Shown here one piece after another: positions 8,066 through 35,413 of a DNA stretch of 40,185 bases. The stretch is from contig DATFLS010000364.1 of assembly GCA_035267465.1 (NCBI GenBank), positions 1 through 40,185 on the forward strand, written 5' to 3'. Source of the stretch: a bacterium. GTDB taxonomy: Bacteria; Fidelibacterota; JAANXI01. The notes under the pieces are model-generated. The model was not told the origin of the DNA and made no database searches. It worked only from the letters and a program-made list of their open reading frames with translations. The first letter of the stretch is position 1; every line of letters starts with the position of its first letter. Made by a program: the position numbers and the translations under genes.

Positions 8066-8869
8066 CTAGCCGGCGACATCCTCACCGCCATCTACTCCGA
8101 TGATATTTCCTGTCATCCAGGTATTTCCGCCGTCACTTAAATCAGCAATCACCCTGGCAATGTCTTCCGGGCGTGTTAATCGTCCGCCCGGATTTTTCTG
8201 TGCGGCACGGGCCAGCATGTCGTCGTGTCCAGGTATTTTTCGTAATGCCGGAGTATCCGTAACACCCGCCCGAATAGCATTCACAGAAATCTCAAAACGC
8301 CCCAGTTCAAAGGCCAGCTGTCTCACATGGGATTCCAGCGCTGCCTTTGCCGCAGAAACCGCCCCATACGTTCGCCACACTTCATGCCCTCCCGAACTCG
8401 TCATCCCAAAAACGTGCGTGCCGGCGCTGATCAGATCACGTGTAAACATGTCCTGCACCCAATATACCAGACTATTGGCCATCACATCGAGGGTCATATC
8501 CAGGTGTTTTTTGTTGATAATCTCACTGGGATCGTCTGAAATAAAGGGCCGCAGGGTCCCGAAGGCGAGACTATGCAACACAACCATAACCCGGGAGGGG
8601 ACCTCATCATCCGAAATGTGTTCTCCCAACTCGTCCAGGGTTTTCGCCCGCAATTTCTCATCCGCGGCATTCCTGTTAAAAAAGAGTGCCTCAACCCCGT
8701 TCCCGGTAATTTCCTCGATAATTGCGTCTACCTGCGGTTGCATTGCTTTGCGATCAAAATGGATACCGCAGATATGGTACCCGCGCCTGCTCAACTCCAG
8801 CGCCGTTGCCTTCCCAAAACCACTGGACGCCCCCAATATGAGTGCCCATTTTTTTGCAATGTCTGACAT
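8066..8869 (-). CDS. SDR family oxidoreductase, enoyl-ACP reductase (FabL/FabI)-like
   Basis: 267 aa with an N-terminal dinucleotide fold, ALILGASSGFGKATALEL. The active-site spacing is Y-x6-K (YGAVSAAKAALES), as in FabI/FabL, rather than the classical SDR YxxxK. A strong SD (AGGAGGAG) lies 9 nt upstream of ATG 8869. Confidence 0.75.
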   Translation of the reverse strand: MSDIAKKWALILGASSGFGKATALELSRRGYHICGIHFDRKAMQPQVDAIIEEITGNGVEALFFNRNAADEKLRAKTLDELGEHISDDEVPSRVMVVLHSLAFGTLRPFISDDPSEIINKKHLDMTLDVMANSLVYWVQDMFTRDLISAGTHVFGMTSSGGHEVWRTYGAVSAAKAALESHVRQLAFELGRFEISVNAIRAGVTDTPALRKIPGHDDMLARAAQKNPGGRLTRPEDIARVIADLSDGGNTWMTGNIIGVDGGEDVAG

Positions 8870-9187
8870 ATATTGTCGCTCCTCCTGTTCATTCCCATGA
8901 ATTAATTCAGGGAAGCTAGGTTTCTTCCACGTTAATTACAAGCGGAAAGTCTGCAATCGACCCCGTCCGATCAGTCTGATACCGGCCTTGCGCAATTGTT
9001 ACCGAACCAACTGTTCGATACGGAACGCGCTGCCTGTTTACTGGGACACATCGGGGACAATTCTGTGATTTTATGATCCAGATCAAGTGAACGACCCATA
9101 AATCATTTCTGCATTAAGAAATCCAGATTCCTCGTCGATATTAGTCTCACGACAACAAACAAATTCCTATGGCGAGGAGAAAAAAGC

Positions 9188-11659
9188 ATGCGAAAATTAC
9201 TGATTCTGCTAAGCGGTGCGGCTCTTCTGTGGATCGGTGCCTGCTATATTGACAATCCCACCCAGACGAACTTTCCCATGTGGCCGGTGCAGCTGGATGT
9301 CCCTCTGTACAAACAACATATGGGCTTTTCAGATATTCTGGATGATTCCCTTATTACGCAAGTAGTTGATACCGATGGCGACTCGCTTTATGCCATTCAA
9401 AAAGATATCCAGATTGATACCACCCGCCTTGATAACCAACTGGCATTTGACAATCTTACTCAATCGTTCACACAATCGATCGATGCTGTCACTATTGAAT
9501 CCACCCCCAAATCAGCCCATGCAGAAATCGGGAAAGTCGCGCTGGCCGATATCGGTCCCATCACCACCACCGAATTCATATTTGAGCAAATTATGCCGGC
9601 TGCCCTCGTAGATCCCCTCAGAACGGCCATCCAAATCAACGGAGGAACGGCCACAGTTGACAGCATTCCCAGTACGGACTTGGAACCGGTTACCAAGGCA
9701 TTCTCATTTGGTGATTTTGAGGGCGCAACGTTCGAATCCGGCACCATTGAAGTGACCGTGTACAATAACATGGTGATTCCATTCGGAAAGCCGTTCACCC
9801 TGAGTCTTATGGATACCATCGCCAATTCAGTTCAAGAGACAGTCTCCTTCTCAGAGTACATTCCGGAAAACTCCAGCGCGACCGAAACCATCGATCTGGC
9901 CGGGAAAACCCTCTCCAATATTAATGGCGTGCGAGTGAACGGAGAATCCGACGGCTCACAGGAACAGCCGGTTACCCTAACCGATGCCGATCTGCAGAGC
10001 GGATTCTCCCTGGAAGCCAATGTACGAAATATGGTTGTCTCCGCGGCGACGGCGAAAATTCCTTCCCAGATGATCGCAAACACCGATACGGTCGCGCTGC
10101 AGAATTCCGACGCCAAGATCGAGTCAGCCGAAATTTCCACAGGAAGCCTCGATATTGATGTCCAGAATACCATCGATCTGAACTCGGAAGTCACGCTTTC
10201 AATTCCATCTCTGGTTGATAACCAGAATAATCCGCTGGAAACAACGATTCAGCTGACTGCGCAAACAGACAATCAGACCAGTATCGACCTGTCCCCCTAT
10301 ACCCTGAACATGGATACGGCCGCACAACAGCTGGAATATAGTTATGAAATTCTCACGGCGGCCACCGATCCCAATCTCGCCACTATCCAGGAAAACGATA
10401 GCATCGATGTGCAAATTAACCTGCAGAACATCACTTTTTCTTCGATTACCGGATACTTTACTTCCAATGCGATAGTGGAAACCGACTCCATCGCACTCCA
10501 AACCGGTCATCAAATTCAGGAGGCGCTGCTTGATTCAGGGCAATTGGCCATCACCATTACTAATAACATGGGTGTGATGGCGGATGTATTTCTCTCGATC
10601 GATGAATTATATGAACCCGATCAATCCAGCTTCGCGGAAACCATTTCACTGCCGCCGCTGGGAGCCCAGCAATCTTCCGTGTTCAATCTCCGCAACCATA
10701 CCATCGAGATTGACGGCCAACAGCAGTCGTTGCATTACGAATCGCGTATCAACCTGGATCCCGAACAGCGGATGACTATTAATTTCGATGACTCTCTCGG
10801 AATTGACCTCGGACTGACCGATATAAATTTTGCCCATATCACCGGGATCGTTGAGCCAATCACAATTAAGATCGATACCGTTGAACAGGAAATCTCGACC
10901 CTGCCGGAGGAGCTGGATGGTATCGATCTCCAGGATGTCGATATGAGCCTGAATTTCGAAACGAATCTCCAGATCCCGGTATTTCTTGACCTGTCTATTT
11001 CCGCCTACAACAATCAGGGCGAATCCGATTCTATCGTCGTGAATGACTGGGATATCACACAACAGTCCACGCTGGTGATCGATCAGGCGGAAGATTTAAT
11101 TAATCTGCATCCGACAAAGTTTGTGGCCGCCGGTGCTGCCCGCATTGGTGACGGCGTCCAGTCGGCGACCGTGTCGAAAGGCGAATATGCTGCAGGGACC
11201 CTGAATATTCTCGCACCGCTTTCTTTCCAAATCAGTGAGGACATCAGCCAGGAAATTGATCCCCAGGAAGTCAGCGCAGACATCCCTGAGCAAGTCGAAG
11301 AGTTTATACTGTACACTGATATTGTGAACCAATTCTTGTTCGGTGCCACCGTGGAAGTGGTTGCTGCCCCTGATACCAATACCTTCCACAGCGGATCATC
11401 CATTAAACCAGATACCCTGGTCATCCTACGAATTGATCCCGGTGATCCTGACAACGCAGTATCGAAGGTGGATTCCGTCGTACTGAATGATTCGAAGATT
11501 GCCCTGTTCCAGGAACCGATCTATCTCAAGACCAATGTCAGTGTGATCGGGCAATCCAATGGATTGGCGACTAAAGTACGCTCCACGGATTCGCTCTTTA
11601 TCTCACTCTCCGGATCAGTGAAGTATCTCAACGACCATCTGGCATCCGAAAATGAATAG
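9188..11659 (+). CDS. Large acidic multi-module lipoprotein, unknown family (cassette 1)
   Basis: 823 aa. The signal peptide has lipobox LLWIGAC (Cys19), which is the only Cys in the protein. An SD (AGGAG) lies 8 nt upstream. The protein is very D/E/T/S/Q/N-rich. A motif G-x-L-x-I-x-V-x-N-N/T recurs about every 133 aa: GTIEVTVYNN at 185, GSLDIDVQNT at 319, GQLAITITNN at 451 and VDMSLNFETN at 584. It is collinear with the paralog at 13586-15625. Confidence 0.85.
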   Translation: MRKLLILLSGAALLWIGACYIDNPTQTNFPMWPVQLDVPLYKQHMGFSDILDDSLITQVVDTDGDSLYAIQKDIQIDTTRLDNQLAFDNLTQSFTQSIDAVTIESTPKSAHAEIGKVALADIGPITTTEFIFEQIMPAALVDPLRTAIQINGGTATVDSIPSTDLEPVTKAFSFGDFEGATFESGTIEVTVYNNMVIPFGKPFTLSLMDTIANSVQETVSFSEYIPENSSATETIDLAGKTLSNINGVRVNGESDGSQEQPVTLTDADLQSGFSLEANVRNMVVSAATAKIPSQMIANTDTVALQNSDAKIESAEISTGSLDIDVQNTIDLNSEVTLSIPSLVDNQNNPLETTIQLTAQTDNQTSIDLSPYTLNMDTAAQQLEYSYEILTAATDPNLATIQENDSIDVQINLQNITFSSITGYFTSNAIVETDSIALQTGHQIQEALLDSGQLAITITNNMGVMADVFLSIDELYEPDQSSFAETISLPPLGAQQSSVFNLRNHTIEIDGQQQSLHYESRINLDPEQRMTINFDDSLGIDLGLTDINFAHITGIVEPITIKIDTVEQEISTLPEELDGIDLQDVDMSLNFETNLQIPVFLDLSISAYNNQGESDSIVVNDWDITQQSTLVIDQAEDLINLHPTKFVAAGAARIGDGVQSATVSKGEYAAGTLNILAPLSFQISEDISQEIDPQEVSADIPEQVEEFILYTDIVNQFLFGATVEVVAAPDTNTFHSGSSIKPDTLVILRIDPGDPDNAVSKVDSVVLNDSKIALFQEPIYLKTNVSVIGQSNGLATKVRSTDSLFISLSGSVKYLNDHLASENE

Positions 11660-11670
11660 GAGAAACCATT

Positions 11671-12957
11671 ATGAAATTGCGACACATATTAGCCGTCATT
11701 TTATCACTGCTCATTGCAGACACTGGGTATAGCCAGACCTATTTGAGCCCGCGCAGTATTGGTTACGCACAAACGTATGCCACTCAATCGCGCGGAGCGG
11801 ATGCTATCGGATGGAATCCTGCGAACCTCGGCTATGAAGACAATCCCGGATTTTCACTGAGTTTCGGCGTTTTACCCTTTATCCCGTTCCCATCGGTTTA
11901 TCTGGGAAACACCTCCGTCTCAGCCTCCTGGTACGATAACAATTTCCGCCAGGGTGGTATGCTGGATGAGGCAGCGAAAGAGGAGATACTTTCCGTGTTC
12001 CCGGAGGACGGCTGGCGCCTTGATCCCCAGATATATCTTCGTCTGCTGGGTATGTCCATAGGCCGAACGGCCATCGCCCTGGATACCCAGGTGCTCAACT
12101 CTGTGGTCCTGCCAAAATCCATTCCGGAATTGCTGTTAGAGGGGATACAGTTCGATGATGTGGTGTCCCTCAATGAATTTCATGTGGAAAGCCTCTCATC
12201 TGCAACGTTCTCGGTGGCTCATGGATTTCCCATCCATCTCCCGTACGTTCCGGAATTTTCTCTGGGAGTGGGCGTGAAAGCCATTGCCGGATTGGCATAT
12301 GCCGCCACAGACAGCTTTTCCGGAGGATTGACCACCTACCGGGATCGCATCGTTGCCGATGGAAATGCCATAGCCAGGTATACCCTGGGTGGATACGGCT
12401 ATGCTTTCGATCTGGGGATTTCTTCCCGATTAACAGACCGCATTACCGGAAGCCTGGCCCTGAATAATCTTATGGGATCAATCACATGGACAGATGATTA
12501 TACCCAAACGCATCATTATGCCTTTAACCTGTCCACAGAGGTGCAGGATCTCTACGATTCCAATCTTGATTCGCTGATGACAAACGCCCTCACTGCGGAC
12601 ACCTCCTATGCCTCCAGCGGCTTCACTACACCTTACCCATCTTATCTTGTTGCCGGTGTGCAGTACGATCTGCTCTCACGAGTTCGCCTCTTTGTCAATT
12701 ACAAACTGGGTCTGTCCGATTTACTGATCTCGCCGACTCAACCGAGGATATCCTTTGCCGGCGAACTCAGACCGCTCAAATGGTTCCCCATTCGGTTCGG
12801 TATTACCAACGGGAACCTGAATAAATTTGAATGGGGGGCCGGATTCGGTTTGGAATTCTCACACTACTCTCTCCTGTTCGGATTTTCGCAGACCGGCGGC
12901 TTTTTCAATAGCGCCACCGGATTTTCGCTCGCCGTCGGACAGGAATTAGTATTCTAA
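11671..12957 (+). CDS. Outer-membrane beta-barrel protein, FadL/PorV-like (cassette 1)
   Basis: 428 aa, starting 11 nt after the lipoprotein stop with its own SD (AGGAG). It has a signal peptide (cleavage around YSQ/TY). The N-terminal plug-like segment GYAQTYATQSRGADAIGWNPANLG carries an NPA motif like the FadL-family hatch. Amphipathic beta-strand patterning runs throughout and the protein ends in an aromatic residue (GQELVF). No Cys. Confidence 0.8.
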   Translation: MKLRHILAVILSLLIADTGYSQTYLSPRSIGYAQTYATQSRGADAIGWNPANLGYEDNPGFSLSFGVLPFIPFPSVYLGNTSVSASWYDNNFRQGGMLDEAAKEEILSVFPEDGWRLDPQIYLRLLGMSIGRTAIALDTQVLNSVVLPKSIPELLLEGIQFDDVVSLNEFHVESLSSATFSVAHGFPIHLPYVPEFSLGVGVKAIAGLAYAATDSFSGGLTTYRDRIVADGNAIARYTLGGYGYAFDLGISSRLTDRITGSLALNNLMGSITWTDDYTQTHHYAFNLSTEVQDLYDSNLDSLMTNALTADTSYASSGFTTPYPSYLVAGVQYDLLSRVRLFVNYKLGLSDLLISPTQPRISFAGELRPLKWFPIRFGITNGNLNKFEWGAGFGLEFSHYSLLFGFSQTGGFFNSATGFSLAVGQELVF

Positions 12958-12991
12958 GTTCTGAATCCGGCTGTATCGTTACCAGTTTGCA

Positions 12992-13030
12992 GGGAGGTCT
13001 GCAACATCTGCAGACCTCCTCTCTTTCATT
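12992..13030 (+). terminator. Rho-independent terminator after cassette 1
   Basis: A perfect 11-bp stem pairs GGAGGTCTGCA (12993-13003) with TGCAGACCTCC (13009-13019) around a 5-nt loop. It is followed by the T-rich tract TCTCTTTCATT and lies 36 nt after the barrel stop codon. Confidence 0.65.
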
Positions 13031-13195
13031 ATCACGCCGAATTTTCTGATTCATAATACACCAGGAAGACAGACACCATAACACCGGCGATTCATTCTAC
13101 GAATCCGGAATCTTATATGATAATATAACTCCTAATAAATTCAATGATGTAGTGCAAGAATCACCATCTGAATCCAAATATTTTTTAATTTTTTA

Positions 13196-13223
13196 TTGTA
13201 TATAAGCAACTTATTCTTATAAC
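13196..13223 (+). promoter_or_regulatory. Candidate sigma70-type promoter for cassette 2
   Basis: TTGTAT (13196-13201), a 16-nt spacer, then TATAAC (13218-13223), preceded by an A/T-rich UP-like tract (AAATATTTTTTAATTTTTTAT). The -10 overlaps the first 11-bp direct repeat. The match is weak and the call rests on position only. Confidence 0.3.
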
Positions 13224-13241
13224 TTACAGGTAACTTACAGG
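13220..13241. repeat. Perfect tandem direct repeat, 2 x 11 bp (TAACTTACAGG)
   Basis: TAACTTACAGG occurs at 13220-13230 and again at 13231-13241, with a partial third copy (AACTTA) at 13208-13213. It lies in the AT-rich spacer 345 nt upstream of the cassette-2 start codon. Confidence 0.9.
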
Positions 13242-13585
13242 ATGATCGACATTACAAAAATATTGGAGTGTCGCACGTTTCTGGAGGGTAATCGAATCAA
13301 GTCACTGATTTCTGTGATGAAAATCATACAAACTTTCCAAATAGATCCTAACTTCAGTAACACCAGAGGATAACTGCTGATTCTTCCCCCGGATGTCATA
13401 TCCGTCGGAGAAGACGAACCGGAAGTGAACGACAGTGATCAGCTGAAACCTGCCGGGGAGGTGAATCCGCACAGGTATAGGGAAACGGATCGCATTTCCG
13501 GTCAGGTTCCGAATACATAAGTGCTCTTTCAAAACAGAGCTATTTTCACTTCAACCGAAAGCATTACAAGTGTGAGGATGGTATT

Positions 13586-15625
13586 ATGCACAAAAAAATC
13601 ACTATCATAGTCGTACTGGCGCTGGCTATTCTTGCGGGCTGCTATATTGAGAATCCCACCCAGTTGAACTTTCCGACCTGGTCCGTTAATCTGGAGGTGC
13701 CCCTGCTGAAGCAGACCATCTACTTCGATGATATACTGAGTGATACGGTGTTAACTACTACCGCACTCGAAGAGGGCTCTTCGGACTCGGTTTTTGCCTT
13801 TCAAAAGGCATTCGACATCGATTCGGTAATTATTGACGAGCAGCTGGACTACAATGAGGTTCAAAAATCCAGATCGAAAGCCATCGACACGATCTCTCTG
13901 GCCCCCCCGGCTCCCTTTGAAACCGAGAGCTTCGCGTTCCGGGACATCATGCCCAGCTCGATTATCGATCCTATCGAAACCGCCCTGAGTTCCCAGGACA
14001 CCGTTACCACCATTATTGTTGAGAAGGATCTTCAGACCCAGACGAAGTCAATCAGCTTCAATTCATTCCGGAGAGCCGTTATCAGCGACGGCTTCCTCGA
14101 CATCACCGTTCATAATAATATGTTCATACCGCTTGGAGCCCCCATCACGGTGATATTGGAGAACAGTGAAGGGAGCATCATTGACTCGGTGGAATTTACC
14201 AACCGCATCCCAACCAACGGAGACGAGACACAGAGCCTCGATATCTCTGGAAAAGTATTCACCGGCGATATAACGGTATCGGTCACCGGTCATAGTGAGG
14301 GTTCGGATGGGCCTGTCGATATCACACAGAAAGAGCTTGCCAGCGGCTTTTCTATTACCGCGGAGATCCATAACCAGGGGGATAATTTGAAAGTCACCTC
14401 CGCCACCGCCCAAATACCAGGCCAGACCATTCAGGATGCGGACACCGTTGCTCTTCAGGCGGACACGAAAGTTGAACAGGCTGTTCTGAATACGGGAATG
14501 CTTACATTGGACATTGCCAACAACCTTGAGTTAAACGCGGATCTTCACCTGACCGTGCATTCCCTGGTAGATGAGTTCGGGACTCCTTTTCAACTCAATC
14601 TGGATGTTCCGGCAAGTTCTCAGGTGAACCGGCAATCCGATCTCTCTGCATATACTTTGCAAATGCCAATCTCCCAACAGGAGATACCATACAGTTATAC
14701 AGTAAACACAGAAGATACCGGAGAAAATTTTGCCACCGTTGCATCCGATGACAGCGTGGAACTGGATATTCAGATGGGTAACCTCACCTTCGAAGAACTC
14801 ACCGGAACTATCGCTCCCCAAACCGTCGATTTCGAAAGTGTTGAGCAAGAGCTGACGGAGTTACCGGAGGACCTGAGAGGTATCGAACTGCAAAACGTCG
14901 ATATGATTCTCGATGTGGACACCGATGTCGATATTCCGGTGTTTCTGGATATGAAACTGATCTCTGTGAACAGTGCGGGCGAGTCAGACTCTCTGGAGGT
15001 GACCAACCACAATATCACAGAGAATCCCCAGGTGATCTTCGAGAATGCAGCGCCTCTGCTCAATTTATTTCCTGAGAAAATATTTGCCGTCGGAACCGCC
15101 ACCATAGGGGAGGAAGGTCATATCGGAACGGTCACCAGAGGACAGTATGTCACCGGCGAATTGAATATCACCGCGCCGTTCCAGTTCAACATCGCTGAAA
15201 ATCCCCGGGTCGAACTGGATCCGGAGCTGGTGGATGAAGAGCTGCCCGAACAGGTAGAAGGCATGCAGTTGTTCGCTCTGATGGAGAATGCCTTTGAAAT
15301 TGGCGCCAGTGTGGAAATTTATGCCGCCAAAGATACGACCTCGTTCGAAGACGATTCCCCGGACTCTTCCCTGGGGATTTTCACCATCGCTGCTGATAGC
15401 GCCTCGCTGGATTCACTCGTGCTTGACCAATCTGACGTCAGCTTGTTTCAGAAACCAGTTTACATCAAAACGATTGTGAACATGATGGGGAAAAACGGAA
15501 GTGAAACCTCACAAATTCTTTCGACTGATTCCCTGCAAATTACCCTCTACGGAAAAGCACAATATCTGAATGACCAATTACATAATCTGAATGATGATTC
15601 AACCGATATGGCCGAACAGGAGTAA
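13586..15625 (+). CDS. Large acidic multi-module lipoprotein, paralog (cassette 2)
   Basis: 679 aa with lipobox LAILAGC, its only Cys, and an SD (GAGGA) 7 nt upstream. The mature N-terminus CYIENPTQLNFPTWSVNLEVPLLKQ aligns with CYIDNPTQTNFPMWPVQLDVPLYKQ of the first copy. The two are collinear to the C-terminus (STDSLQITLYGKAQYLND vs STDSLFISLSGSVKYLND). It has three rather than four copies of the roughly 133-aa module. Confidence 0.85.
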   Translation: MHKKITIIVVLALAILAGCYIENPTQLNFPTWSVNLEVPLLKQTIYFDDILSDTVLTTTALEEGSSDSVFAFQKAFDIDSVIIDEQLDYNEVQKSRSKAIDTISLAPPAPFETESFAFRDIMPSSIIDPIETALSSQDTVTTIIVEKDLQTQTKSISFNSFRRAVISDGFLDITVHNNMFIPLGAPITVILENSEGSIIDSVEFTNRIPTNGDETQSLDISGKVFTGDITVSVTGHSEGSDGPVDITQKELASGFSITAEIHNQGDNLKVTSATAQIPGQTIQDADTVALQADTKVEQAVLNTGMLTLDIANNLELNADLHLTVHSLVDEFGTPFQLNLDVPASSQVNRQSDLSAYTLQMPISQQEIPYSYTVNTEDTGENFATVASDDSVELDIQMGNLTFEELTGTIAPQTVDFESVEQELTELPEDLRGIELQNVDMILDVDTDVDIPVFLDMKLISVNSAGESDSLEVTNHNITENPQVIFENAAPLLNLFPEKIFAVGTATIGEEGHIGTVTRGQYVTGELNITAPFQFNIAENPRVELDPELVDEELPEQVEGMQLFALMENAFEIGASVEIYAAKDTTSFEDDSPDSSLGIFTIAADSASLDSLVLDQSDVSLFQKPVYIKTIVNMMGKNGSETSQILSTDSLQITLYGKAQYLNDQLHNLNDDSTDMAEQE

Positions 15626-15630
15626 ATAGA

Positions 15631-16923
15631 ATGAAATTTTACTGGCAATATATGCGAATCTTGTTGATAGGTGTCATCATCACCGGAACTGCGCGAAGTC
15701 AGCCATACATTAGTCCCCGCAGTATGGCATTCTCGGGCGCTTATGCCACGCAGGCCCGCGGAGTGGAAGTCCTTGGCTGGAATCCGGCGAATCTCGGATA
15801 CGCAGATAATCCGGGCTTTATGTTAAGTTTCGGTGTGCTGCCACTGGTACCGTTTCCCTCTATATCCCTTGCAAACAACACTATAACTCCCTCGTTATAT
15901 AATACGTATTTTCATCAGGGGGACCATCTGGATGACATGAAAAAACAAGCCTTGCTGGCAAATTTTCCCGAGAAAGGTACCGAGGTGTATCCCCAGGTAT
16001 CTATGCGATTGTTCGGGATATCGTTCGGCCGCACCGCTCTGGCTCTGGATGTCCAGGCGCTGGGTGCGGGAACCATTCCCAAGTCCGTACCGAATCTCGC
16101 ATTCCTGGGAAATGAATTCGATGCGCCGATATCTCTGGAAAATATCAATGTTGAGACACTCGGAGTGACTAGCCTGTCAATCGCCCATGCGTTTTCTCTC
16201 ACCATTCCGTATTTCCAGGAGACCTACCTCGGCGTTGGCGTCAAGGCGCTTGGCGGCGGGGGGTATGCTCACACCGAAGAAGTCTCCGGTGAACTGACTC
16301 TATCCCGGGACCGCATTATCGCACAGGGAGACGCCACCGCCAAATATAGTCTGGTGGGATACGGATATGCATTCGATCTTGGTGCGGCAGCAAAGATCAA
16401 TGAGAGAATGACGGCTAATCTGGCCCTGAACAATCTTCTGGGCAGAATTAACTGGACAGACGAAAATACCGAACTCTACGAATATAGTTTCGATTTTGAA
16501 CTCAACTCCCGGGATATCCCCGATCTTAACGCCGATTCACTGATGGAAGCCTCTGTGAACACTGATACGGCATATGCCGCACCCGGATTTAACACCGCCT
16601 ACCCAACCTATCTCGTCGCCGGCTTCCAGTACGATCCAATCTCGCCCCTCAGTGTCTTTGTGAATTATCGGATGGGGTTTTCAAATCAGCTCATGAGCAC
16701 CACCAAACCGCGACTGTCAGTCGCAGGGGAATACATGCTGGCTCGCTGGTTTCCTGTGCGGTTCGGTCTGCACGTCGGAGGGCTCCACAATTTCGGATGG
16801 GGTACCGGACTGGGATTGGAGTTCAACCACTACCGCCTTGTCTTTGGCTTCTCGCAGACCGGGGGATTCTTTAATAACGCCAAAGGATTCTCGCTGGCAT
16901 TGGGTCAGGAGCTGGTCTTTTGA
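15631..16923 (+). CDS. Outer-membrane beta-barrel protein, FadL/PorV-like, paralog (cassette 2)
   Basis: 430 aa, starting 5 nt after the lipoprotein stop with an SD (AGGAG). A hand alignment of about 115 N-terminal residues gives roughly 55% identity to the 11671-12957 product. Shared segments include GWNPANLGY.DNPGF.LSFGVLP, GYGYAFDLG and the C-terminus GFSQTGGFFN.A.GFSLA.GQELVF. Confidence 0.8.
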   Translation: MKFYWQYMRILLIGVIITGTARSQPYISPRSMAFSGAYATQARGVEVLGWNPANLGYADNPGFMLSFGVLPLVPFPSISLANNTITPSLYNTYFHQGDHLDDMKKQALLANFPEKGTEVYPQVSMRLFGISFGRTALALDVQALGAGTIPKSVPNLAFLGNEFDAPISLENINVETLGVTSLSIAHAFSLTIPYFQETYLGVGVKALGGGGYAHTEEVSGELTLSRDRIIAQGDATAKYSLVGYGYAFDLGAAAKINERMTANLALNNLLGRINWTDENTELYEYSFDFELNSRDIPDLNADSLMEASVNTDTAYAAPGFNTAYPTYLVAGFQYDPISPLSVFVNYRMGFSNQLMSTTKPRLSVAGEYMLARWFPVRFGLHVGGLHNFGWGTGLGLEFNHYRLVFGFSQTGGFFNNAKGFSLALGQELVF

Positions 16924-27642: not shown

Positions 27643-28296
27643 CTAACCCGCGTTCTTCAGGCGAAAGACAATCGGGATGGAATACCAGACGCCGACCGCC
27701 CGATCGCGCTGTTTTGCCGGTTTCCACTTGGTTCTTTGCACGGCTTCAATGGCCGCCTCGTTCAGGCCGGTTTTCGGCACGCCCTTCACAATCACTACTT
27801 CTTCCACACTTCCTTCTTGGTTAATGAACGCCTGAACGATCACCGTTCCTTCCACCCCGGCTTCTTTGGCGATTTCCGGATACTTGATTGCCCGTTGCAG
27901 CGCCTGCATACCCCCAATCAATTCAGGGGGTTCATCATAGGGAATGAACTTAACCTTGGGGCCTTCTTCCGGAGCGGGCGGGGGAGCTTCCGAGGCTTCG
28001 AATTCCTGAAATGTGGTCTCTTCAATGGTGACATCTTCTGCGATATCTTCGTTCTCGGATGCCACCGGAACTGTGGGCCTTGAAGGTGCCGGCGGTCTCT
28101 CATACTGCTGGGTTTCCGGAATCTCTACGTTCTCAATCTGAACGTTGGGCTGTTCAATTTCGGTCTCCTTCTGCTCCATCCGCGGAACGGCGACCAACAC
28201 CGCAGTAAGCAGCAGGAGCGAGAGAATCAGCGAGATCCGGATCACCTTCCCATACTTCGCCTTGAGTGATACTTCTGGTTTTGTACGTGTAATCAT
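27643..28296 (-). CDS. tonB: Energy transducer TonB
   Basis: 217 aa with an N-terminal TM anchor (ISLILSLLLLTAVLVAV). A Pro/Glu-rich spacer (PPAPSRPTVPV, EAPPPAPEEGPK) precedes a C-terminal TonB domain (YPEIAKEAGVEGTVIVQAFINQEGSV...VGVWYSIPIVFRLK). Confidence 0.9.
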   Translation of the reverse strand: MITRTKPEVSLKAKYGKVIRISLILSLLLLTAVLVAVPRMEQKETEIEQPNVQIENVEIPETQQYERPPAPSRPTVPVASENEDIAEDVTIEETTFQEFEASEAPPPAPEEGPKVKFIPYDEPPELIGGMQALQRAIKYPEIAKEAGVEGTVIVQAFINQEGSVEEVVIVKGVPKTGLNEAAIEAVQRTKWKPAKQRDRAVGVWYSIPIVFRLKNAG

Positions 28297-28298
28297 AG

Positions 28299-28706
28299 CT
28301 AGGCTTCTGTTCTTGATGAGTAGTTTATCTTCAATGCATCTGCCTCGCGCAATTCCTGATGAAAATCAGTAATCAGGCCCATATTGGAGCCCTTATCGGC
28401 GCGAAGCGAGACCGTAATCTGTGGATCGTTTACTCTCTTCTCATACATGATATGCCGGACATTATCCATCTCCATCAGTTTATCATCAATGGATACTGTC
28501 CCATCTTTGGCAATCCATACGTACGTGACATGCCGCTTCGTTTCCAGCTTCTCAATCTTCTCCGCCTCAGGAAGAATAACGCTCAGACCCTGATATTCTT
28601 TCAGCACTGTAGACACCATAAAGAATATTAGCAGCATGAAAATAATATCCGGAAGTGAAGAAGTCGGGATGTCACCGCTTGATTCTTCTTTTCGTTTGAA
28701 TTTCAT
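28299..28706 (-). CDS. exbD: Biopolymer transporter ExbD/TolR family
   Basis: 135 aa with a single N-terminal TM (LPDIIFMLLIFFMVST) and a periplasmic domain. The gene ends 2 nt before the tonB start. Confidence 0.88.
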   Translation of the reverse strand: MKFKRKEESSGDIPTSSLPDIIFMLLIFFMVSTVLKEYQGLSVILPEAEKIEKLETKRHVTYVWIAKDGTVSIDDKLMEMDNVRHIMYEKRVNDPQITVSLRADKGSNMGLITDFHQELREADALKINYSSRTEA

Positions 28707-28730
28707 GGTATTCTGTCTTTTGGCTTAGTA

Positions 28731-29135
28731 TTATTCCGGGTTCGCGATTGAAATACGATTGGCATTCGCCTGCTTCAGCTCATCCAACACATCCACATAT
28801 CGCTGGTACGTGGTTCGTCTGTCCGTTTTCACAGAGATGATCAGGTTCGGGTTCTCCGCCATCTTCTGCCGGACAAGGGGCTCGACGTCCCGAAGTGCCA
28901 CCTGATCTTCATCCAGCAAAATCTGACCACGAGCATTGATCAACAGATTGCTGATGTTTTTCTTGGAGACTTCGGTTTGCTCGCCTTTCGCCGGGAGTAC
29001 GATTCCCAATCCTTTGTCCATATCGATGGTTGTCGTTACCAGAAAGAAGATAAGCAGCAAGAAAGCGATATCGGCCAGTGATGCCATCGGTATTTCGACG
29101 TTTCGTTCTCTTCGTCCTTCTGTGAGTTTTGGCAT
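28731..29135 (-). CDS. exbD: Biopolymer transporter ExbD/TolR family
   Basis: 134 aa with the typical N-terminus IPMASLADIAFLLLIFFLVTT. It is the second exbD paralog in the operon. Confidence 0.88.
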   Translation of the reverse strand: MPKLTEGRRERNVEIPMASLADIAFLLLIFFLVTTTIDMDKGLGIVLPAKGEQTEVSKKNISNLLINARGQILLDEDQVALRDVEPLVRQKMAENPNLIISVKTDRRTTYQRYVDVLDELKQANANRISIANPE

Positions 29136-29198
29136 TTACTTATACCTCATTGCTAATGTCTGAGACAACTGTGGCGCCCTGATCTGGCTTCGAATCAA

Positions 29199-29858
29199 TT
29201 ATGATCCGGAAGCTGCGGCAGGCGTTGCGCCCCTCTCCAGCTGTCCTTTTTCATCCATGTCCACCAAGGTATCTACCAATTTCACTGATCCTTCTTCCAT
29301 ATCAATGATGATCTTATCGATACGGGAGACGAATAAATTATGAAAGAACTGAATTATAATTGCCACAATCAGCCCGAAGAGCGTTGTCAGCAATGCCACC
29401 GAGATACCACCAGCCACAATGGACGGCGAAATATCATTGGCTTTTTCGATATCCTGGAACGCCATAATCATCCCCCACACCGTTCCGGTAAATCCGAGCA
29501 TGGGAGCAATCGCAATGACCGTTGAAAGCCAGGTAAGCCCGCGTTCCAGAAATGACATTTCTATGCTCCCGGCATTTTCGATGGCTTTCTCCACTTCATC
29601 AATACCACGATGCACTCTGGACAATCCGGCATGGAAAATTTCGGCAACGGGACCAGGCGTATTTTCACATACTTCCAGTGCTCCGGGCACTCCGTCCTCT
29701 TCAAGAGCAGATTGCACATTATTCAATAGCTTCCGCGTACTGATCGACGCTCTGGCGAGAGTATAAAATCGCTCTAAACAAATCATCAATCCAATGATAA
29801 GTAATGCGAGAATCGGATACATAAATCCGCCACCTTGATGGAATAGCTCAATTAACAT
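29199..29858 (-). CDS. exbB: MotA/TolQ/ExbB proton-channel protein
   Basis: 219 aa with three TM segments and the conserved segment APMLGFTGTVWGMIMAF. An SD (AGGAGAAAGG) lies upstream. It is the first gene of the exbB-exbD-exbD-tonB unit. Confidence 0.9.
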   Translation of the reverse strand: MLIELFHQGGGFMYPILALLIIGLMICLERFYTLARASISTRKLLNNVQSALEEDGVPGALEVCENTPGPVAEIFHAGLSRVHRGIDEVEKAIENAGSIEMSFLERGLTWLSTVIAIAPMLGFTGTVWGMIMAFQDIEKANDISPSIVAGGISVALLTTLFGLIVAIIIQFFHNLFVSRIDKIIIDMEEGSVKLVDTLVDMDEKGQLERGATPAAASGS

Positions 29859-31896: not shown

Positions 31897-32955
31897 CTAG
31901 GAAAAACGCACATCTCGTTTAATCGCCTCGATCAAGGGCGGGGAGAACTGAAAATCCGGGGTCACGAAGAAGATATTTTGGTGCGCGACCATTGCCGGTT
32001 CCCATTTGACGAAATCCTTGGCAGTCATGAGAAGATACCGGGCGTCACTGGCAGCGAACTGTTCCAGAATTCGTCGTTGTTCCTGCCCGGGAAAGGCAAA
32101 ATGATCGGGATATGATTGAAACCGGGTAATCTGCACCGGCAACCTGGTTAGAGCGCTGCGAAAGGACCGCTGATCTCCGATCCCCGTCACTACGAAGATT
32201 TTCGGGGGTTCCCGGAAGTCCCTCAGATCGATGTGTGTCTGTTGAACCGGATTTCGTAAAACCGGTGTGGTGTATTTTACGCCCCGGAATATCCGGGCGC
32301 TGGTAAATTTGCGAATCAGATGCTCCCCGGCTTTCCAATCCACCTCGTCGTTTGGTGCGACAATTACCGGATGCGTTGCACGTTTCAGGGCGGCCAGCGG
32401 CTCCCGGAGCCGGCCGGCCGGCAGCAGCCGCTCGTTACCTGTGAGATCATCGAGTGGCAAAAGGACAATGTCACTGTCCCGCTGGAGCGCCCGGTGCTGA
32501 AATCCATCGTCCATAATAATTACATCACAGCCATATTGTGTTCGGGCAATTCGGGCCGCATCCACCCGGTTTTCATCAACGACTACAATGGCGGCAGGCA
32601 GCACGGTACTCAACATAAATGGTTCATCACCCGCCATTTCGACGGTCACCACCGGGCCGTCCCCTTCACTGACGACGACCTGACCTGAAGAGCTCCGTCG
32701 GTACCCACGGCTGATAATGGCCGGTCGGAACCCGGCCCGGATCAAGGCCTCCGCCACATATCTCACGCACGGAGTTTTACCGCTGCCGCCTACCCGCAGA
32801 TTCCCCACACTGATGACCGGGATGTCTATGCGGGTCGATTGGCACCACTGGCGATCATAACACACATTTCTGAACGATACCCCCAGGCGATACAACCAGC
32901 TCAGCGGCAGTAATAACGCTGACAGCTCACTGTCGAAAATATTGATCTGCTTCAT
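31897..32955 (-). CDS. lpxK: Tetraacyldisaccharide 4'-kinase
   Basis: 352 aa with the P-loop in the characteristic LpxK context PVISVGNLRVGGSGKTP. It overlaps the 3' end of the upstream DUF374 gene by 29 nt. Confidence 0.9.
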   Translation of the reverse strand: MKQINIFDSELSALLLPLSWLYRLGVSFRNVCYDRQWCQSTRIDIPVISVGNLRVGGSGKTPCVRYVAEALIRAGFRPAIISRGYRRSSSGQVVVSEGDGPVVTVEMAGDEPFMLSTVLPAAIVVVDENRVDAARIARTQYGCDVIIMDDGFQHRALQRDSDIVLLPLDDLTGNERLLPAGRLREPLAALKRATHPVIVAPNDEVDWKAGEHLIRKFTSARIFRGVKYTTPVLRNPVQQTHIDLRDFREPPKIFVVTGIGDQRSFRSALTRLPVQITRFQSYPDHFAFPGQEQRRILEQFAASDARYLLMTAKDFVKWEPAMVAHQNIFFVTPDFQFSPPLIEAIKRDVRFS

Positions 32956-33616
32956 CCTGCAATTGACTCAAGGACACTTGAATTTTTTGGAGAGTTGCCG
33001 GGAGTACGTCCTTCCTGTTGCCTGAAATCTGTTCGGGATAAACGGGTTCACCGAACATGACTATGTTGTGTGCGAATGGTAGAGGGAGGTAAAACCGATC
33101 CCAGCTGTTCGTGATTATTTTCTTCCGGCTGGAATTCGAGGCCAGTGGGAGTACCACCGCTTGCGTTTCCTGAGAGATCCTGGCCGTACCCGGCTTGCAT
33201 TTCCGATAAGGTCCTATGGGCCCGTCCGTCGTGATGGCAATGGTATTGGTAGAATCCGTGGCAAGCTCCAATCCCTTTTCCAGGGCTTCTATTCCGCGAT
33301 CCCGGCTCGATCCCCGAATCATAAAATATCCCAGCCGTTTCAACATTCGTGCAATCATCTCCGCATCCCGATGGTAGCCGACCATGGTGTGAATCCCCTG
33401 ATTGCGCATCATATATATTGGCGCCAGCATCTGTCCGTGCCAGAGTGCCAGGATAACACTCCTTCCGGAATCACGCAGCTGCAGATATCGTTCGTGATGG
33501 ATAAATTCATTTCTCGAGAAGATGAATAACGAGCGCAAAAAGTAAGGCCCCGTCAATGCCCCCAGGGAAAATTTGAATCGTTTCCACCAATATTTGCGCT
33601 TCCGGGCAGCAGGCAT
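32927..33616 (-). CDS. DUF374 lysophospholipid-acyltransferase-like protein
   Basis: 229 aa. The LWHGQMLAP motif, and a position between lpxB and lpxK, are typical of the DUF374 family often linked to waaA/lpxK. Its ATG overlaps the lpxB TGA (ATGA at 33614-33618). Confidence 0.7.
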   Translation of the reverse strand: MPAARKRKYWWKRFKFSLGALTGPYFLRSLFIFSRNEFIHHERYLQLRDSGRSVILALWHGQMLAPIYMMRNQGIHTMVGYHRDAEMIARMLKRLGYFMIRGSSRDRGIEALEKGLELATDSTNTIAITTDGPIGPYRKCKPGTARISQETQAVVLPLASNSSRKKIITNSWDRFYLPLPFAHNIVMFGEPVYPEQISGNRKDVLPATLQKIQVSLSQLQDEADQYFRQ

Positions 33617-34764
33617 CAGATCTCTCTTCCGGAGTTTTGAAGTTCATGAGCTATCGAAACCGCAACGCGTTTTCCGGCACCCGGCTCTCCCAGTTTCTCT
33701 CTGATTTCCGACAATGCGTTCTGGACTGAGTGATAATGCTCAGGGTCTTCCAGGTATCTCACTACCGCCGGTGCGATATTCTTGCTGATCGCCTGATCCT
33801 GCAGGAATTCCGGCACCACCTTTTTTCCTGCCACGATATTTGCCAACCCGATATAGTCCATCCTGACCAGCAAATGTCCGAGCCACCAGGTGAGGGGATT
33901 CATCCGATAAATAATCACCATCGGCGTACCAAAATAGGCGGTTTCCAGAGTCGCACTGCCGGAGGCGACAATCACGACCTGACTGTATTTCATCACCTCG
34001 TAAGTGTATCCCTGCACAACCTGAATATCACCGGGAGGGAGATGACCATCGAGATCCGCCAGGGATAAATCCGGCGCCAGGGCCAGAAGGAACTGCAGTG
34101 GCCGGGAAACAGCGGACTGCAATTCTTTCACCGATTGGAACATGACCGTCAGGTGCCGGTCAATTTCCTGCTTCCGGCTCCCGGGGAGCAATCCGATGGT
34201 GGTGGCCTGTGGATCTCCTCCCGTGTTTCGGAAAAATTCTTCTCTGGACTGAACATCCTGTACTTCTTCGGCCAGCGGATGTCCCACGAATTCCACGGGA
34301 ATTTGATGATCTTTGTATAACTGCTCCTCGAACGGAAAAATCACGAATATCTTGTGCACCAAGCGTTGCATTTTTCGCAGCCGCCTTTGACCCCATGCCC
34401 ATACCTGGGGAGATATATAGTAGTACACGGGGATCTCAAATTTCCTCATCCGCCGGGCAAATCGTAAATTGAAGCCCGGATAATCTATCAGGATCACTGC
34501 ATCGGGCTTGTGCTCCTGTGCCCACCTGACCATGCTGTCCATGACCCCCTTGATGAACGGAAGATGCTTCACCACCTCGGCAAACCCCATGAGCGACATC
34601 TCTTTGATGTGGTAGAGGAGGTGCATACCGGCATCCGCCATTTTGTTCCCCCCGATCCCCACAATCCGGACATCAGGGAGCAGGAGCCGGAGATGCGACA
34701 CCAGGGCTGCACCATGAGTGTCACCGGAGGTTTCGCCAGCAATGATAAGTATTTTTTTCCTCAT
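33616..34764 (-). CDS. lpxB: Lipid-A-disaccharide synthase
   Basis: The N-terminus MRKKILIIAGETSGDTHGAALV matches the LpxB signature (AGE.SGD..GA.L). I use ATG 34764, because the ORF-track start 34854 adds 30 non-conserved residues and would overlap the upstream gene. Confidence 0.9.
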   Translation of the reverse strand: MRKKILIIAGETSGDTHGAALVSHLRLLLPDVRIVGIGGNKMADAGMHLLYHIKEMSLMGFAEVVKHLPFIKGVMDSMVRWAQEHKPDAVILIDYPGFNLRFARRMRKFEIPVYYYISPQVWAWGQRRLRKMQRLVHKIFVIFPFEEQLYKDHQIPVEFVGHPLAEEVQDVQSREEFFRNTGGDPQATTIGLLPGSRKQEIDRHLTVMFQSVKELQSAVSRPLQFLLALAPDLSLADLDGHLPPGDIQVVQGYTYEVMKYSQVVIVASGSATLETAYFGTPMVIIYRMNPLTWWLGHLLVRMDYIGLANIVAGKKVVPEFLQDQAISKNIAPAVVRYLEDPEHYHSVQNALSEIREKLGEPGAGKRVAVSIAHELQNSGREI

Positions 34765-34825
34765 GATATTCGGGTAAAATAGAGTGAGGGGTTCCTCGAA
34801 ATCGTGAATCTGAGCACCCGGTCCA

Positions 34826-35413
34826 CTACAGGTGAAGGTACAGCCATTTTCCACCCAGTAGAATGAGTACCATCGCCATATTCATCAGAGTACTTTTTTC
34901 TGGCTTCAGTGTTTCCCGGATTGAAAAATGTTCCCGGGAGGGCCGGACTGTATTTCCCCAGGGACGTAAACCCGGAATAAATCTGCCGACATGTTTTCGG
35001 TAGCTCTCATAATGTTCGCCGAACATCTCCTCCAGGGTTGTCTCTTCCAGCGAAATAATCAACAAGTATTGGATGGTGAAGAAGATGATGGCGATGAGGA
35101 ATAGTTCCCACATCCAGGGACCGGAGGCAATAAAGACGATTCCTGCATAGATGAACATGTTCCCGAGATACAAGGGATTTCGGACATATCCGTACGGTCC
35201 GGACGTAACAAGTGACGGCGCTCCCACCTCACGGGTTCTGGTGGCGCCACCGGCGTGACGTACAGCCCAGAACCGTATCGCCTCCCCCAGGAACAGCAGC
35301 CCGAATCCGGGTACGATCCAGGGCAATCCGGGATGCGCCTGATACAGGAGCAGCAGAACGAGTGGGATAGGGGTATAGCTCCGATACTTGAAAAAGCAGT
35401 GGGCTATCTTCAT
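34826..35413 (-). CDS. ICMT/PEMT-family membrane methyltransferase (LmtA-like candidate)
   Basis: 195 aa, polytopic membrane protein. It has the C-terminal signature LVTSGPYGYVRNPLYLGNMFIYAG of isoprenylcysteine carboxyl / phospholipid methyltransferase families. Its ATG overlaps the TGA of the upstream Gfo/Idh/MocA gene (ATGA at 35410-35413). Confidence 0.75.
   Translation of the reverse strand: MKIAHCFFKYRSYTPIPLVLLLLYQAHPGLPWIVPGFGLLFLGEAIRFWAVRHAGGATRTREVGAPSLVTSGPYGYVRNPLYLGNMFIYAGIVFIASGPWMWELFLIAIIFFTIQYLLIISLEETTLEEMFGEHYESYRKHVGRFIPGLRPWGNTVRPSREHFSIRETLKPEKSTLMNMAMVLILLGGKWLYLHL

Follow-up and report, generated by a model that had tools for sequence, protein, structure and literature searches.

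Tandem cassettes of an acidic modular lipoprotein and a FadL-fold barrel in a Fidelibacterota contig: a possible counterpart of BamG-BamH

In the Bacteroidota BAM complex, the FadL-fold barrel BamG grips a surface lipoprotein, BamH, through the conserved N-terminus of the latter (PMC12611786, PMC12578637; both 2025). Structures of the pair have been solved for F. johnsoniae (9N2D), B. thetaiotaomicron (9HJ3/9HIV) and P. gingivalis (9HJM). The BamH N-terminus is wedged into BamG, where it touches BamG's conserved N-terminus, and BamH carries O-glycosylation (PMC12578637). The bamG and bamH genes adjoin in Ignavibacterium, Caldithrix, Gemmatimonas, Fibrobacter and Salinibacter, while the paralogue pairs BT_1785/1786 and Fjoh_1686/1685 are also adjacent (PMC12611786 Supplementary Table 1). 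Among the BamG/BamH entries given for such organisms are Cabys_4206/4207, IALB_1455/1454 and GAU_1453/1452. The channels FadL, TodX and TbuX have the same type of fold but act alone, without a dedicated lipoprotein. FadL requires an NPA hatch motif for both structure and transport, and the barrels of FadL and BamG have 14 strands. Two further FadL-like barrels from the same superphylum, in PorV-PorU and PorQ-PorZ, retain surface proteins at the outer membrane by binding the C-terminal signal domain of non-lipoprotein cargo. In SusC/SusD, RagAB and BtuB-BtuG, a surface lipoprotein and a barrel are encoded by neighbouring genes, but these barrels are 22-stranded, TonB-dependent and located in nutrient-utilisation loci.

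The window, a stretch of 40,185 nt, contained two tandem cassettes on the forward strand, each a lipoprotein gene followed by a barrel gene. The first-pass annotation had described two such units, and all four ORFs were recovered at the sizes it gave: lipoprotein A (823 aa; 9188–11659), barrel A (428 aa, with a signal peptide; 11671–12957), lipoprotein B (679 aa; 13586–15625) and barrel B (430 aa; 15631–16923). Inspection identified a Shine-Dalgarno-like GAGGAG (9174–9179) upstream of lipoprotein A. Each barrel also had a Shine-Dalgarno-like sequence of its own, as previously proposed; the stop codon of lipoprotein A and the start of barrel A were separated by 11 nt, with GGAG preceding the start, while the corresponding gap in the second cassette was 5 nt and its AGGAG overlapped the lipoprotein B stop codon. 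Between the cassettes was a spacer of 628 nt (12958–13585) in which the only ORFs were of 31–76 aa, none of them convincing, and in which an Rfam scan matched no RNA family. A highly stable hairpin with a perfect 12-bp stem (12992–13020, forward strand) began 35 nt beyond barrel A (dG = -22.5 kcal/mol, z = -4.3); none of 200 shuffled sequences folded equally well. The strength of this hairpin agrees with the terminator proposed at first pass, but because the T-tail (CTCTTTCATT) is weak, that identity is plausible rather than proven.

Both lipoproteins had a signal peptide extending to a lipobox Cys19, the sole cysteine in each, and the mature N-termini were CYIDNPTQTNFPMWPVQLDVPLYKQ in A and CYIENPTQLNFPTWSVNLEVPLLKQ in B. 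Family alignment placed the lipid-anchor Cys and conserved N-terminal motif at 9242–9316 in A and 13640–13714 in B (both forward strand). The motif took the form C-x10-P-x-W-x-V-x-L-x-V-P-L in lipoprotein A and C-x7-10-P-x-W-x-V-x-L-x-V-P-L across the family, where it was found in 53 members from several phyla and fell within the top three conserved 15-residue windows; an alignment of 22 diverse members showed no variation at its C, W and P. Both proteins had a pI of 4.05, with net charges of -90 (A) and -84 (B) and K+R contents of 3.6% and 4.1% respectively. The single cysteine, conserved N-terminus and acidic, K/R-poor composition reported at first pass were therefore all upheld. So was its failure to place these proteins in a known family, since Pfam and NCBIfam scans of A and B matched none. 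Lipoprotein A did match the profile built for the present family (E = 0), which comprised 2690 clusters at 50% identity.

The two lipoproteins were 34–37% identical, and A contained one additional internal module. Pairwise and profile alignment located a module of approximately 138 residues, present as two tandem copies in A (10055–10885, forward strand) and one in B; residues 311–823 of A aligned again to residues 161–670 of B, and family profile positions 267–404 were matched twice within A. The AlphaFold2 model of lipoprotein B (pLDDT 80.8) was almost entirely beta, and as modelled the lipoprotein is a chain of beta-sandwich modules. Lipoprotein B represents the basal architecture of ~650 aa, a length class common to members from Calditrichota, KSB1 and Ignavibacteriota. 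Across the family, length ranged from 350 to about 1140 aa (~650–1140 aa in most relatives); this variation was confined to the middle modules, while the N-terminal anchor and C-terminal region were fixed. The Bacteroidota O-glycosylation sequon, D[ST][AILVMT], was enriched about threefold in A and B. By the surface-export criterion of Bacteroidota, i.e., at least two acidic residues among the six positions after Cys, 14 of 59 family members qualified; A and B have one such residue each.

The pairing of the two genes proved to be general. When genomes were searched with the barrel, a lipoprotein homologue lay immediately 5' on the same strand at 63 of 66 loci. Two loci had no upstream DNA, and all of the 64 informative loci had the lipoprotein, including one from Gemmatimonadota (L066) that encoded a 393-aa protein with the same motif (E = 7.8e-9 with filters off). 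The reverse search, beginning with the lipoprotein, found a barrel immediately 3' in 48 of 49 testable metagenome loci, and the same order occurred on five additional contigs. The pairing was thereby repeated at more than 110 independent loci, in phyla that include Marinimicrobia/Fidelibacterota, Calditrichota, KSB1, Ignavibacteriota and Gemmatimonadota. Barrel clades tracked the length classes of the lipoproteins (~350, 650, 805 and 950–970 aa), and pairwise identities of the two proteins were correlated (r = 0.91); long-type and short-type pairs occurred together in one MAG. This is pairing beyond chance, and the dedicated one-to-one partner system suggested at first pass, together with its expectation of conserved adjacency across genomes, was borne out. 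No catabolic, regulatory or TonB-type partners were seen near the pair in the genomic contexts inspected, and surroundings differed between genomes; combined with the very large lipoprotein family, this variability is housekeeping-like. T9SS cargo genes were present in related genomes.

Barrels A and B were 52% identical over 425 residues without gaps, close to the local value of about 55% given at first pass, and shared the C-terminal block FGFSQTGGFFN...GQELVF. Both matched Pfam PF18990, i.e., DUF5723 (E = 8e-20 for A, 1.7e-19 for B); with their relatives they scored 71–126 bits against a curated cut-off of 26.8, as family members alongside BT_3413, P. gingivalis Q7MT24 and Brachyspira BP951000_RS09655. 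The Pfam search recommended at first pass therefore returned a named family, but to our knowledge DUF5723 has no known function and no described lipoprotein partner. The hatch motif was RGADAIGWNPANLG, containing NPA, in barrel A (11791–11832) and RGVEVLGWNPANLG in barrel B (15757–15798), both on the forward strand. It formed the top conservation window of the barrel family, with N51, P52, A53 and N54 of barrel B invariant across 36–47 homologues, and in barrel A it aligned with the part of TbuX and PorV that contains NPA. The AlphaFold2 model of barrel B (pLDDT 86.3, pTM 0.79) matched PgBamG, TbuX and FadL in Foldseek with probability 1.0, in keeping with the FadL-like barrel and NPA hatch first proposed, and this model places the fold in the FadL superfamily. 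The best PDB match was P. gingivalis BamG (9hjm_F, E = 6.9e-9); BamG from F. johnsoniae and B. thetaiotaomicron was likewise matched with probability 1.0, and FadL and TbuX scored about level with BamG, although TM-scores for these structural matches were only ~0.5. DSSP assigned about 16 strands to the model; the window barrel probably has 16 strands rather than 14. A borderline SPOR (peptidoglycan-binding) domain was observed in the barrels of one subfamily.

Among known systems, the window pair appears most similar to the BamG-BamH module, a precedent missing from the first-pass interpretation, while membership of a BAM complex is unproven. In both cases a FadL-fold barrel is matched one-to-one with a lipoprotein, the N-terminal stretch of the lipoprotein that follows the lipid Cys is conserved, and the genes are adjacent, as they are in the BamG/H paralogue pairs and, outside Bacteroidota, in other FCB phyla. 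The phyla found here overlap in part with those reported for bamG/bamH, namely Ignavibacteriota, Calditrichota and Gemmatimonadota. Second paralogous pairs also occur in both (the BamG2-BamH2 operon, BT_1785-1786), and the glycosylation sequons of the window lipoproteins parallel modified BamH. However, the window barrel belongs to DUF5723 and not Toluene_X, under whose curated cut-off it scored, and the lipoprotein is not DUF4270, the Pfam family of BtBamH (0 of 12 lipoproteins scanned). The best score of barrel profiles against BamG chains was 0.33, and two broader profiles missed BamG altogether; five lipoprotein profiles found no match among BamH chains, and no such chain was among the 50 best structural matches to the lipoprotein model. 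The lipoproteins of the window family are longer and modular, whereas the alignment of BtBamH2 spans 385 residues and BtBamH is longer by ~100. The N-terminal extension of Bacteroidota BamG is absent from the window barrels, in which the mature end is 27 residues ahead of NPA and, when aligned with TbuX, falls ~5 residues short of it; the C-terminal extension is also absent, the chain closing with the last strand, at its terminal Phe. In pull-downs, the B. thetaiotaomicron DUF5723 protein BT_3413 was not enriched alongside BamA.

This last result, and the absence of a sequence link to BamG or BamH, would suit a display system unrelated to BAM, in which the barrel merely anchors a structural or adhesive surface protein (an S-layer-like coat, spacer or adhesin) and module number is matched to how thick the cell-surface layer is. 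Variation of the middle modules alone, between fixed ends, is as expected of such a protein, as are its extreme acidity and abundant glycosylation-like sequons, and the SPOR domain would link wall, outer membrane and surface protein. Yet BamG is the top structural match of the barrel, bamH-bamG operons are reported from several of the same phyla (PMC12611786), two different operons of a lipoprotein and a FadL-like barrel per genome would be less economical, and low copy number with broad conservation suits core envelope machinery more than a variable coat; we regard display alone as rather unlikely.

Lower still in probability is a lateral-diffusion channel of FadL type for a hydrophobic or amphipathic nutrient, with the lipoprotein as surface capture partner after the manner of SusD/SusC, one of two functions offered at first pass. 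The hydrocarbon channels TbuX and TodX are nearest to the barrels by sequence (barrel profiles against PDB chains: TbuX 5.5e-6, PorV 3.9e-5, TodX 1e-3), the NPA hatch is invariant and BamG-type extensions are missing. But PorV also retains NPA and is no nutrient channel, hydrophobic substrates would be odd ligands for a strongly acidic array of beta-sandwiches that varies in length, and the cited literature describes no FadL channel that has a capture lipoprotein; the variable context, devoid of catabolic, regulatory or TonB-type neighbours, gives capture no positive support. The other function offered, a barrel that exports or anchors its cognate lipoprotein, fits best with respect to anchoring. 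Its PorV-cargo version, with the neighbour bound or shuttled as cargo by a T9SS-related PorV/PorQ-like barrel, fared poorly, and together with Slam-like export or flipping of the lipoprotein is considered highly improbable. Besides the PorV chain, the hatch region gave weak N-terminal matches to the PorV/PorQ families NF033709 (E = 4e-4) and, in one relative, PF19572; T9SS cargo genes are known from related genomes, and a P. gingivalis DUF5723 gene apparently adjoins one, judging from consecutive UniProt accessions. However, NF033709 scores of 15–20 bits fall well below its cut-off of 90, PorV chains rank beneath FadL and BamG structurally, and the partners are lipoproteins lacking the T9SS C-terminal domain, not Sec-only cargo. 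A plugged barrel of ~400 residues would, moreover, be too small for a folded protein of 70–90 kDa.

The favoured explanation, with a probability of roughly 0.45, is that an obligate FadL-fold barrel and its docked surface lipoprotein form a non-Bacteroidota FCB counterpart or paralogue of BamG-BamH, probably as a BAM-type accessory. Strict pairing, co-diversification, the BamG-like fold and the conserved contact candidates (hatch and lipoprotein N-terminus) were counted in favour of the BamG-BamH reading, as were the literature distribution of bamG/bamH, the housekeeping-like behaviour and the glycosylation sequons. Counted against it were the missing sequence link, missing extensions, ~16 strands and TM of ~0.5, as well as BT_3413, the absence of BamH from the first 50 structural hits and the few acidic residues after Cys. 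Under the BamG-BamH reading, the lipoprotein would be exported, receive its lipid at Cys19 and then be sorted to the outer membrane, while the barrel would be made from the mRNA that also encodes the lipoprotein, a few bases further 3'. The conserved N-terminus of the lipoprotein would dock on or in the barrel, and the remainder, made up of acidic beta-sandwich modules in varying number and a C-terminal region that is fixed, would point outward; the barrel would therefore be chiefly a membrane dock and not a free-standing channel. The pair may then act as an extracellular canopy beside BamA, aiding the assembly of outer-membrane proteins with large external parts, and the two cassettes may provide alternative modules, as with BamG/H and BamG2/H2.

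All four open reading frames described by the first-pass annotation were present on the forward strand, arranged as two consecutive cassettes: lipoprotein A (9188–11659, 823 aa) with barrel A (11671–12957, 428 aa), and lipoprotein B (13586–15625, 679 aa) with barrel B (15631–16923, 430 aa). The barrel start codon followed the lipoprotein stop codon by 11 nt in cassette A and 5 nt in cassette B, and was preceded by GGAG or AGGAG in each case. The two cassettes are real and far beyond chance expectation; among the loci scanned, tandem duplication of the whole cassette was seen only here and in a 78% identical relative (L004). The spacer between them was 628 nt long and had no convincing open reading frame; a hairpin with a perfect 12-bp stem (dG = -22.5 kcal/mol, z = -4.3) and a weak T-tail was located 35 nt 3' of barrel A. 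Hidden RNA genes in the spacer were rejected after Rfam and tRNA scans returned no match. The promoter of the second cassette may lie in an AT-rich tract within the spacer (13100–13260); consensus promoter matches in this tract did not exceed the frequency seen after shuffling.

The association between lipoprotein and barrel was essentially absolute. A scan beginning from the barrel, with one genome per species, produced 66 loci from Neomarinimicrobiota, Fidelibacterota, Calditrichota, KSB1, Ignavibacteriota, Gemmatimonadota, Delongbacteria and unclassified MAGs; the window itself is a MAG contig, and its relatives were from Marinimicrobia (Neomarinimicrobiota) and Fidelibacterota. Using profiles built in this analysis, a lipoprotein homologue was identified immediately upstream and on the same strand at 63 of these loci. 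Two of the other three had no upstream DNA, while the third, a Gemmatimonadota locus (L066), had a 393-aa lipoprotein upstream, starting ...AACDFTEPQWEVDLILPF, which was detected with filters off (E = 7.8e-9). Beginning from the lipoprotein, a barrel was found immediately downstream at 48 of 49 testable metagenome loci, the exception leaving only 576 nt, and five more contigs showed the same order. Adjacency was kept at every informative locus, and the earlier proposal of a dedicated partner system was right. Barrel clades tracked the length classes of the lipoproteins, and barrel and lipoprotein identities were correlated (r = 0.91), in part through phylogeny.

This correspondence extended to barrels of about 550 aa, which were paired without exception with lipoproteins of 951–954 aa. 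These barrels, from Fidelibacterota/Marinimicrobia (L001, 10907–12559; L002, 9860–11512; L003, 10898–12565; L065, 6007–7662; and many of L073–L125), had approximately 120 additional residues at the N-terminus. The single example scanned against Pfam gave a borderline match to the peptidoglycan-binding SPOR domain at residues 75–149 (22 bits, cut-off 21), and the additional segment may, on this sequence match, be a peptidoglycan tether attached to a FadL-fold barrel. Some genomes contained two unlinked and differing pairs, as in the MAGs JAUWFQ01 (L020 and L039) and DAOTJS01 (L012 and L013); in JAUWFQ01 the lipoprotein was about 970 aa in one pair and about 350 aa in the other. Two further loci, L070 (2900–6410) and L071 (2863–6458), contained a pair whose N-terminal motif had diverged (C[AT]VE[AT]P...), and shared a context in which a PEP-utilising enzyme and metK preceded the pair and a DUF5610 gene followed it; in L070 a small gene of the Omp85 family lay about 2.5 kb downstream.

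Barrels A and B were 52% identical over their full length, without gaps. Both matched Pfam DUF5723 (PF18990; E about 1e-19), scoring 72.3 and 71.2 bits against a cut-off of 26.8 bits; related barrels scored 33–126 bits, and one Gemmatimonadota relative had no match. Pfam Toluene_X (PF03349) did not match the window barrels at E <= 1, and its scores among relatives (16–21 bits) were below the curated cut-off of 29.7 bits. The AlphaFold2 model of barrel B (pLDDT 86.3, pTM 0.79) matched FadL-fold barrels in Foldseek with a probability of 1.0 (E between 1e-8 and 1e-6 for FadL, TbuX, TodX and CymD; TM about 0.5). The best match was BamG of the P. gingivalis BAM complex (chain F; E = 6.9e-9), closely followed by TbuX, FadL, TodX, CymD and the BamG proteins of F. 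johnsoniae and B. thetaiotaomicron, with PorV lower. DSSP analysis of the same model suggested approximately 16 strand segments after the hatch, where FadL has 14; a DUF5723 protein from Brachyspira has likewise been modelled with 16 strands.

The hatch, RG..GWNPANLG, was the most conserved segment of the barrel family. Its N-P-A-N was invariant, with no variation at N51, P52 or A53 in 36 and 47 homologues, and the NPA aligned with that of TbuX, CymD and PorV. Family profiles searched against the PDB retrieved TbuX (E = 5.5e-6), PorV (E = 3.9e-5) and TodX (E = 1e-3). The mature N-terminus was at Q24, 27 residues ahead of the NPA and about five residues shorter than TbuX in alignment, while both barrels stopped at ...GQELVF, on the final strand (residues 419–429 of 430). 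As modelled for barrel B, the fold is FadL-like with an N-terminal hatch.

The lipoproteins resisted classification, as the first-pass annotation had found: neither A nor B matched any family in Pfam or NCBIfam, and ten further lipoproteins from other lineages had no Pfam match at E <= 1; it was the barrels that the same family searches placed, in DUF5723. In both window lipoproteins the signal peptide ended at a lipobox cysteine (Cys19), the sole cysteine of the protein, and the mature N-termini were near-identical (CYI[DE]NPTQ.NFP.W.V.L[DE]VPL.KQ). Both had a pI of 4.05, net charges of -90 (A) and -84 (B) and a K+R content of about 4%; their identity was 34–37%, and a module of about 138 residues occurred once more in A than in B. 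All full-length members of the family had an N-terminal motif in common, consisting of the cysteine, 7–10 variable and often acidic residues, and P-x-W-x-[VT]-x-L-x-[VFI]-P-[LF]. The family core combined this N-terminal region with some 270 residues at the C-terminus, and the short 350-aa forms contained nothing else; addition or duplication of middle modules accounted for the forms of about 650, 805 and 950–1140 aa. An exhaustive HMMER profile search recovered 2690 clusters at 50% identity (E <= 1e-3), 866 of them at E <= 1e-30; lengths among the best 150 of the 2690 were mostly 650–705 aa. In cluster look-ups the few named members, which came from Calditrichota and candidate division GN15, were annotated 'hypothetical protein'. 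A cross-phylum profile search for named proteins such as Cabys_4207 and IALB_1454 returned just 17 metagenomic proteins, and tblastn against plasmids gave no match.

Lipoprotein B was modelled (pLDDT 80.8) as an all-beta string of beta-sandwich modules. Its structural matches were generic arrays of the jelly-roll or CBM-like kind, and 4H3W, a Parabacteroides protein that is uncharacterised, gave the best match locally. In both window lipoproteins the sequon for O-glycosylation in Bacteroidota, D[ST][AILVMT], was enriched approximately threefold, occurring 15 times in A (5.8 +/- 2.2 expected from shuffling) and 14 times in B (4.4 +/- 2.0), values reached in 0 of 2000 shuffles; the DTV (D53) and DSV (D67) sequons of lipoprotein B fell on Asp residues that are invariant across the family. 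Under the surface-export rule, which is defined in Bacteroidota only, at least two of the six residues after the cysteine are acidic. This pattern was present in 14 of 59 family lipoproteins and in neither window protein, each of which had one such residue (CYIDNPT, CYIENPT).

The genes flanking the pair were ordinary housekeeping genes that changed from locus to locus. In the window they comprised a two-component system, peptidases, succinate dehydrogenase, tonB-exbB and lpxK/lpxB. The tonB...exbB (27643–29858, minus strand) and lpxK - DUF374 - lpxB (lipid A synthesis; 31897–34854, minus strand) groups were 11–18 kb downstream of the cassettes, and were not kept beside the pair in other genomes. 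A 266-aa open reading frame at 8100–8900 (plus strand) was discounted as a non-gene, being the antisense shadow of an enoyl-ACP reductase/SDR gene (8066–8869, minus strand).

SusC/SusD-type pairs combine a TonB-dependent 22-strand barrel containing a plug with a SusD-like TPR lipoprotein. By comparison, the barrel described here has about 400 residues and a FadL fold and its lipoprotein is modelled as all-beta; Pfam TonB_dep_Rec, Plug and SusD did not match the proteins of the pair in the window. Both SusCD-type and Slam-type pairs were rejected as involving the wrong barrel class.

A closer comparison is offered by the Bacteroidota BAM complex, solved in two papers from 2025, in which BamG, a FadL-family barrel, sits at the back of BamA, and the conserved N-terminus of the surface lipoprotein BamH is wedged in BamG, with its lipid anchor at the BamA-BamG interface and its body forming an extracellular canopy or dome (PMC12611786, PMC12578637). 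BamG proved essential in the two organisms studied; for F. johnsoniae BamH is essential too, while in B. thetaiotaomicron it is dispensable yet important; paralogous BamG2/H2 pairs are operon-encoded (PMC12611786, PMC12578637). According to Liu et al., conservation of BamG and BamH extends to six further FCB phyla, and the accession table of that study has bamG and bamH adjacent in Ignavibacterium, Salinibacter, Fibrobacter, Gemmatimonas and Caldithrix. The present barrel genes likewise adjoin their lipoprotein genes, as in those phyla and in the G2/H2 paralogues, and three phyla of the table are among the loci recovered here, with exactly the same gene arrangement. The two unlinked pairs in JAUWFQ01 and DAOTJS01 recall BamG/H and BamG2/H2 paralogy. 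In BamH a conserved segment after the lipid cysteine binds the barrel; the lipoproteins described here have a lipobox and a conserved motif after the cysteine, a candidate for such a segment. Marinimicrobia are missing from the table of Liu et al., and a literature search found no paper on them; a search of the literature for the published FCB locus tags was likewise negative.

Despite these likenesses, the DUF5723 barrels and their lipoproteins failed every sequence test of BamG/BamH membership that was run, and differ in architecture. Among three barrel profiles compared with the solved BamG chains, the best value was E = 0.33 (9hiv_F, profile A2), and profiles A8 and A9 did not return these chains. 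No BamH chain was found in the PDB with a single lipoprotein sequence or with five profiles (full-length Marinimicrobia; cross-phylum; N-terminal 90 residues; 107 diverse members; short-form core), nor among the best 50 Foldseek matches of the lipoprotein B model. BtBamH is assigned to Pfam DUF4270, which matched none of 12 family lipoproteins scanned (E <= 1). Bacteroidota BamG is set apart from FadL by an N-terminal extension of about 12 residues, which threads the lateral opening, and a C-terminal extension that contacts BamD; the window barrels have neither. The P. gingivalis DUF5723 protein appears separate from BamG of that species, and BT_3413, a DUF5723 protein of B. thetaiotaomicron, was not enriched in BamA pull-downs.

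The interpretation that best accommodates these observations is that the barrel would act as a membrane dock for its own cognate surface lipoprotein, engaging the conserved N-terminus of the latter. The bare statement that barrel and lipoprotein form an obligate complex is very probably correct. The more specific reading, in which the docking pair is a counterpart of BamG-BamH outside Bacteroidota, or a paralogue, is held tentatively, with a probability of roughly 0.45. The concept of a barrel docking a surface lipoprotein is already known from BamG-BamH; a doubtful but possible variant is that the DUF5723 barrel and the lipoprotein family constitute a previously unrecognised, FCB-wide outer-membrane heterodimer separate from BamG-BamH, in which a 16-strand FadL derivative would capture its own surface lipoprotein by the lipidated N-terminus and, in some lineages, would be tethered to peptidoglycan by a SPOR domain. 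Such a heterodimer could be a dedicated machine for surface-lipoprotein insertion or anchoring, or an envelope-spanning scaffold, and would provide a first function for DUF5723.

Among the options raised by the first-pass annotation, anchoring by the barrel fitted best, while uptake, PorV-cargo and Slam-like roles were disfavoured. A system that stands alone as a surface anchor or coat is unlikely. A functional FadL-type uptake channel supplied by a capture lipoprotein is improbable, because the pair lacks associated catabolic or regulatory genes and its context is variable and housekeeping-like. A PorV-like or Slam-like role is very improbable: the window barrels scored 14.9 and 20 bits against NCBIfam NF033709 (PorV/PorQ), where the cut-off is 90 bits, and the lack of a C-terminal signal domain in the partner, a lipoprotein, counts against a T9SS role, Pfam and NCBIfam having detected no Por_Secre_tail in lipoproteins A and B. 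The lipoproteins were rejected as T9SS cargo on the same grounds.

If the docking pair is a BamG-BamH counterpart, the recently discovered extracellular arm of BAM would extend to Marinimicrobia/Fidelibacterota and neighbouring candidate phyla, where its ancestral operon form would be on show, together with an unexpected plasticity that includes lipoproteins from 350 to over 1100 aa, SPOR-fused barrels and tandem paralogues. Otherwise there would be a second, very widespread system of surface lipoprotein and FadL-like barrel, and a first functional handle for DUF5723. In both cases, a lipoprotein family of about 2700 clusters (50% identity), so far annotated only as 'hypothetical', acquires a partner, an architecture and a mechanism that can be tested.
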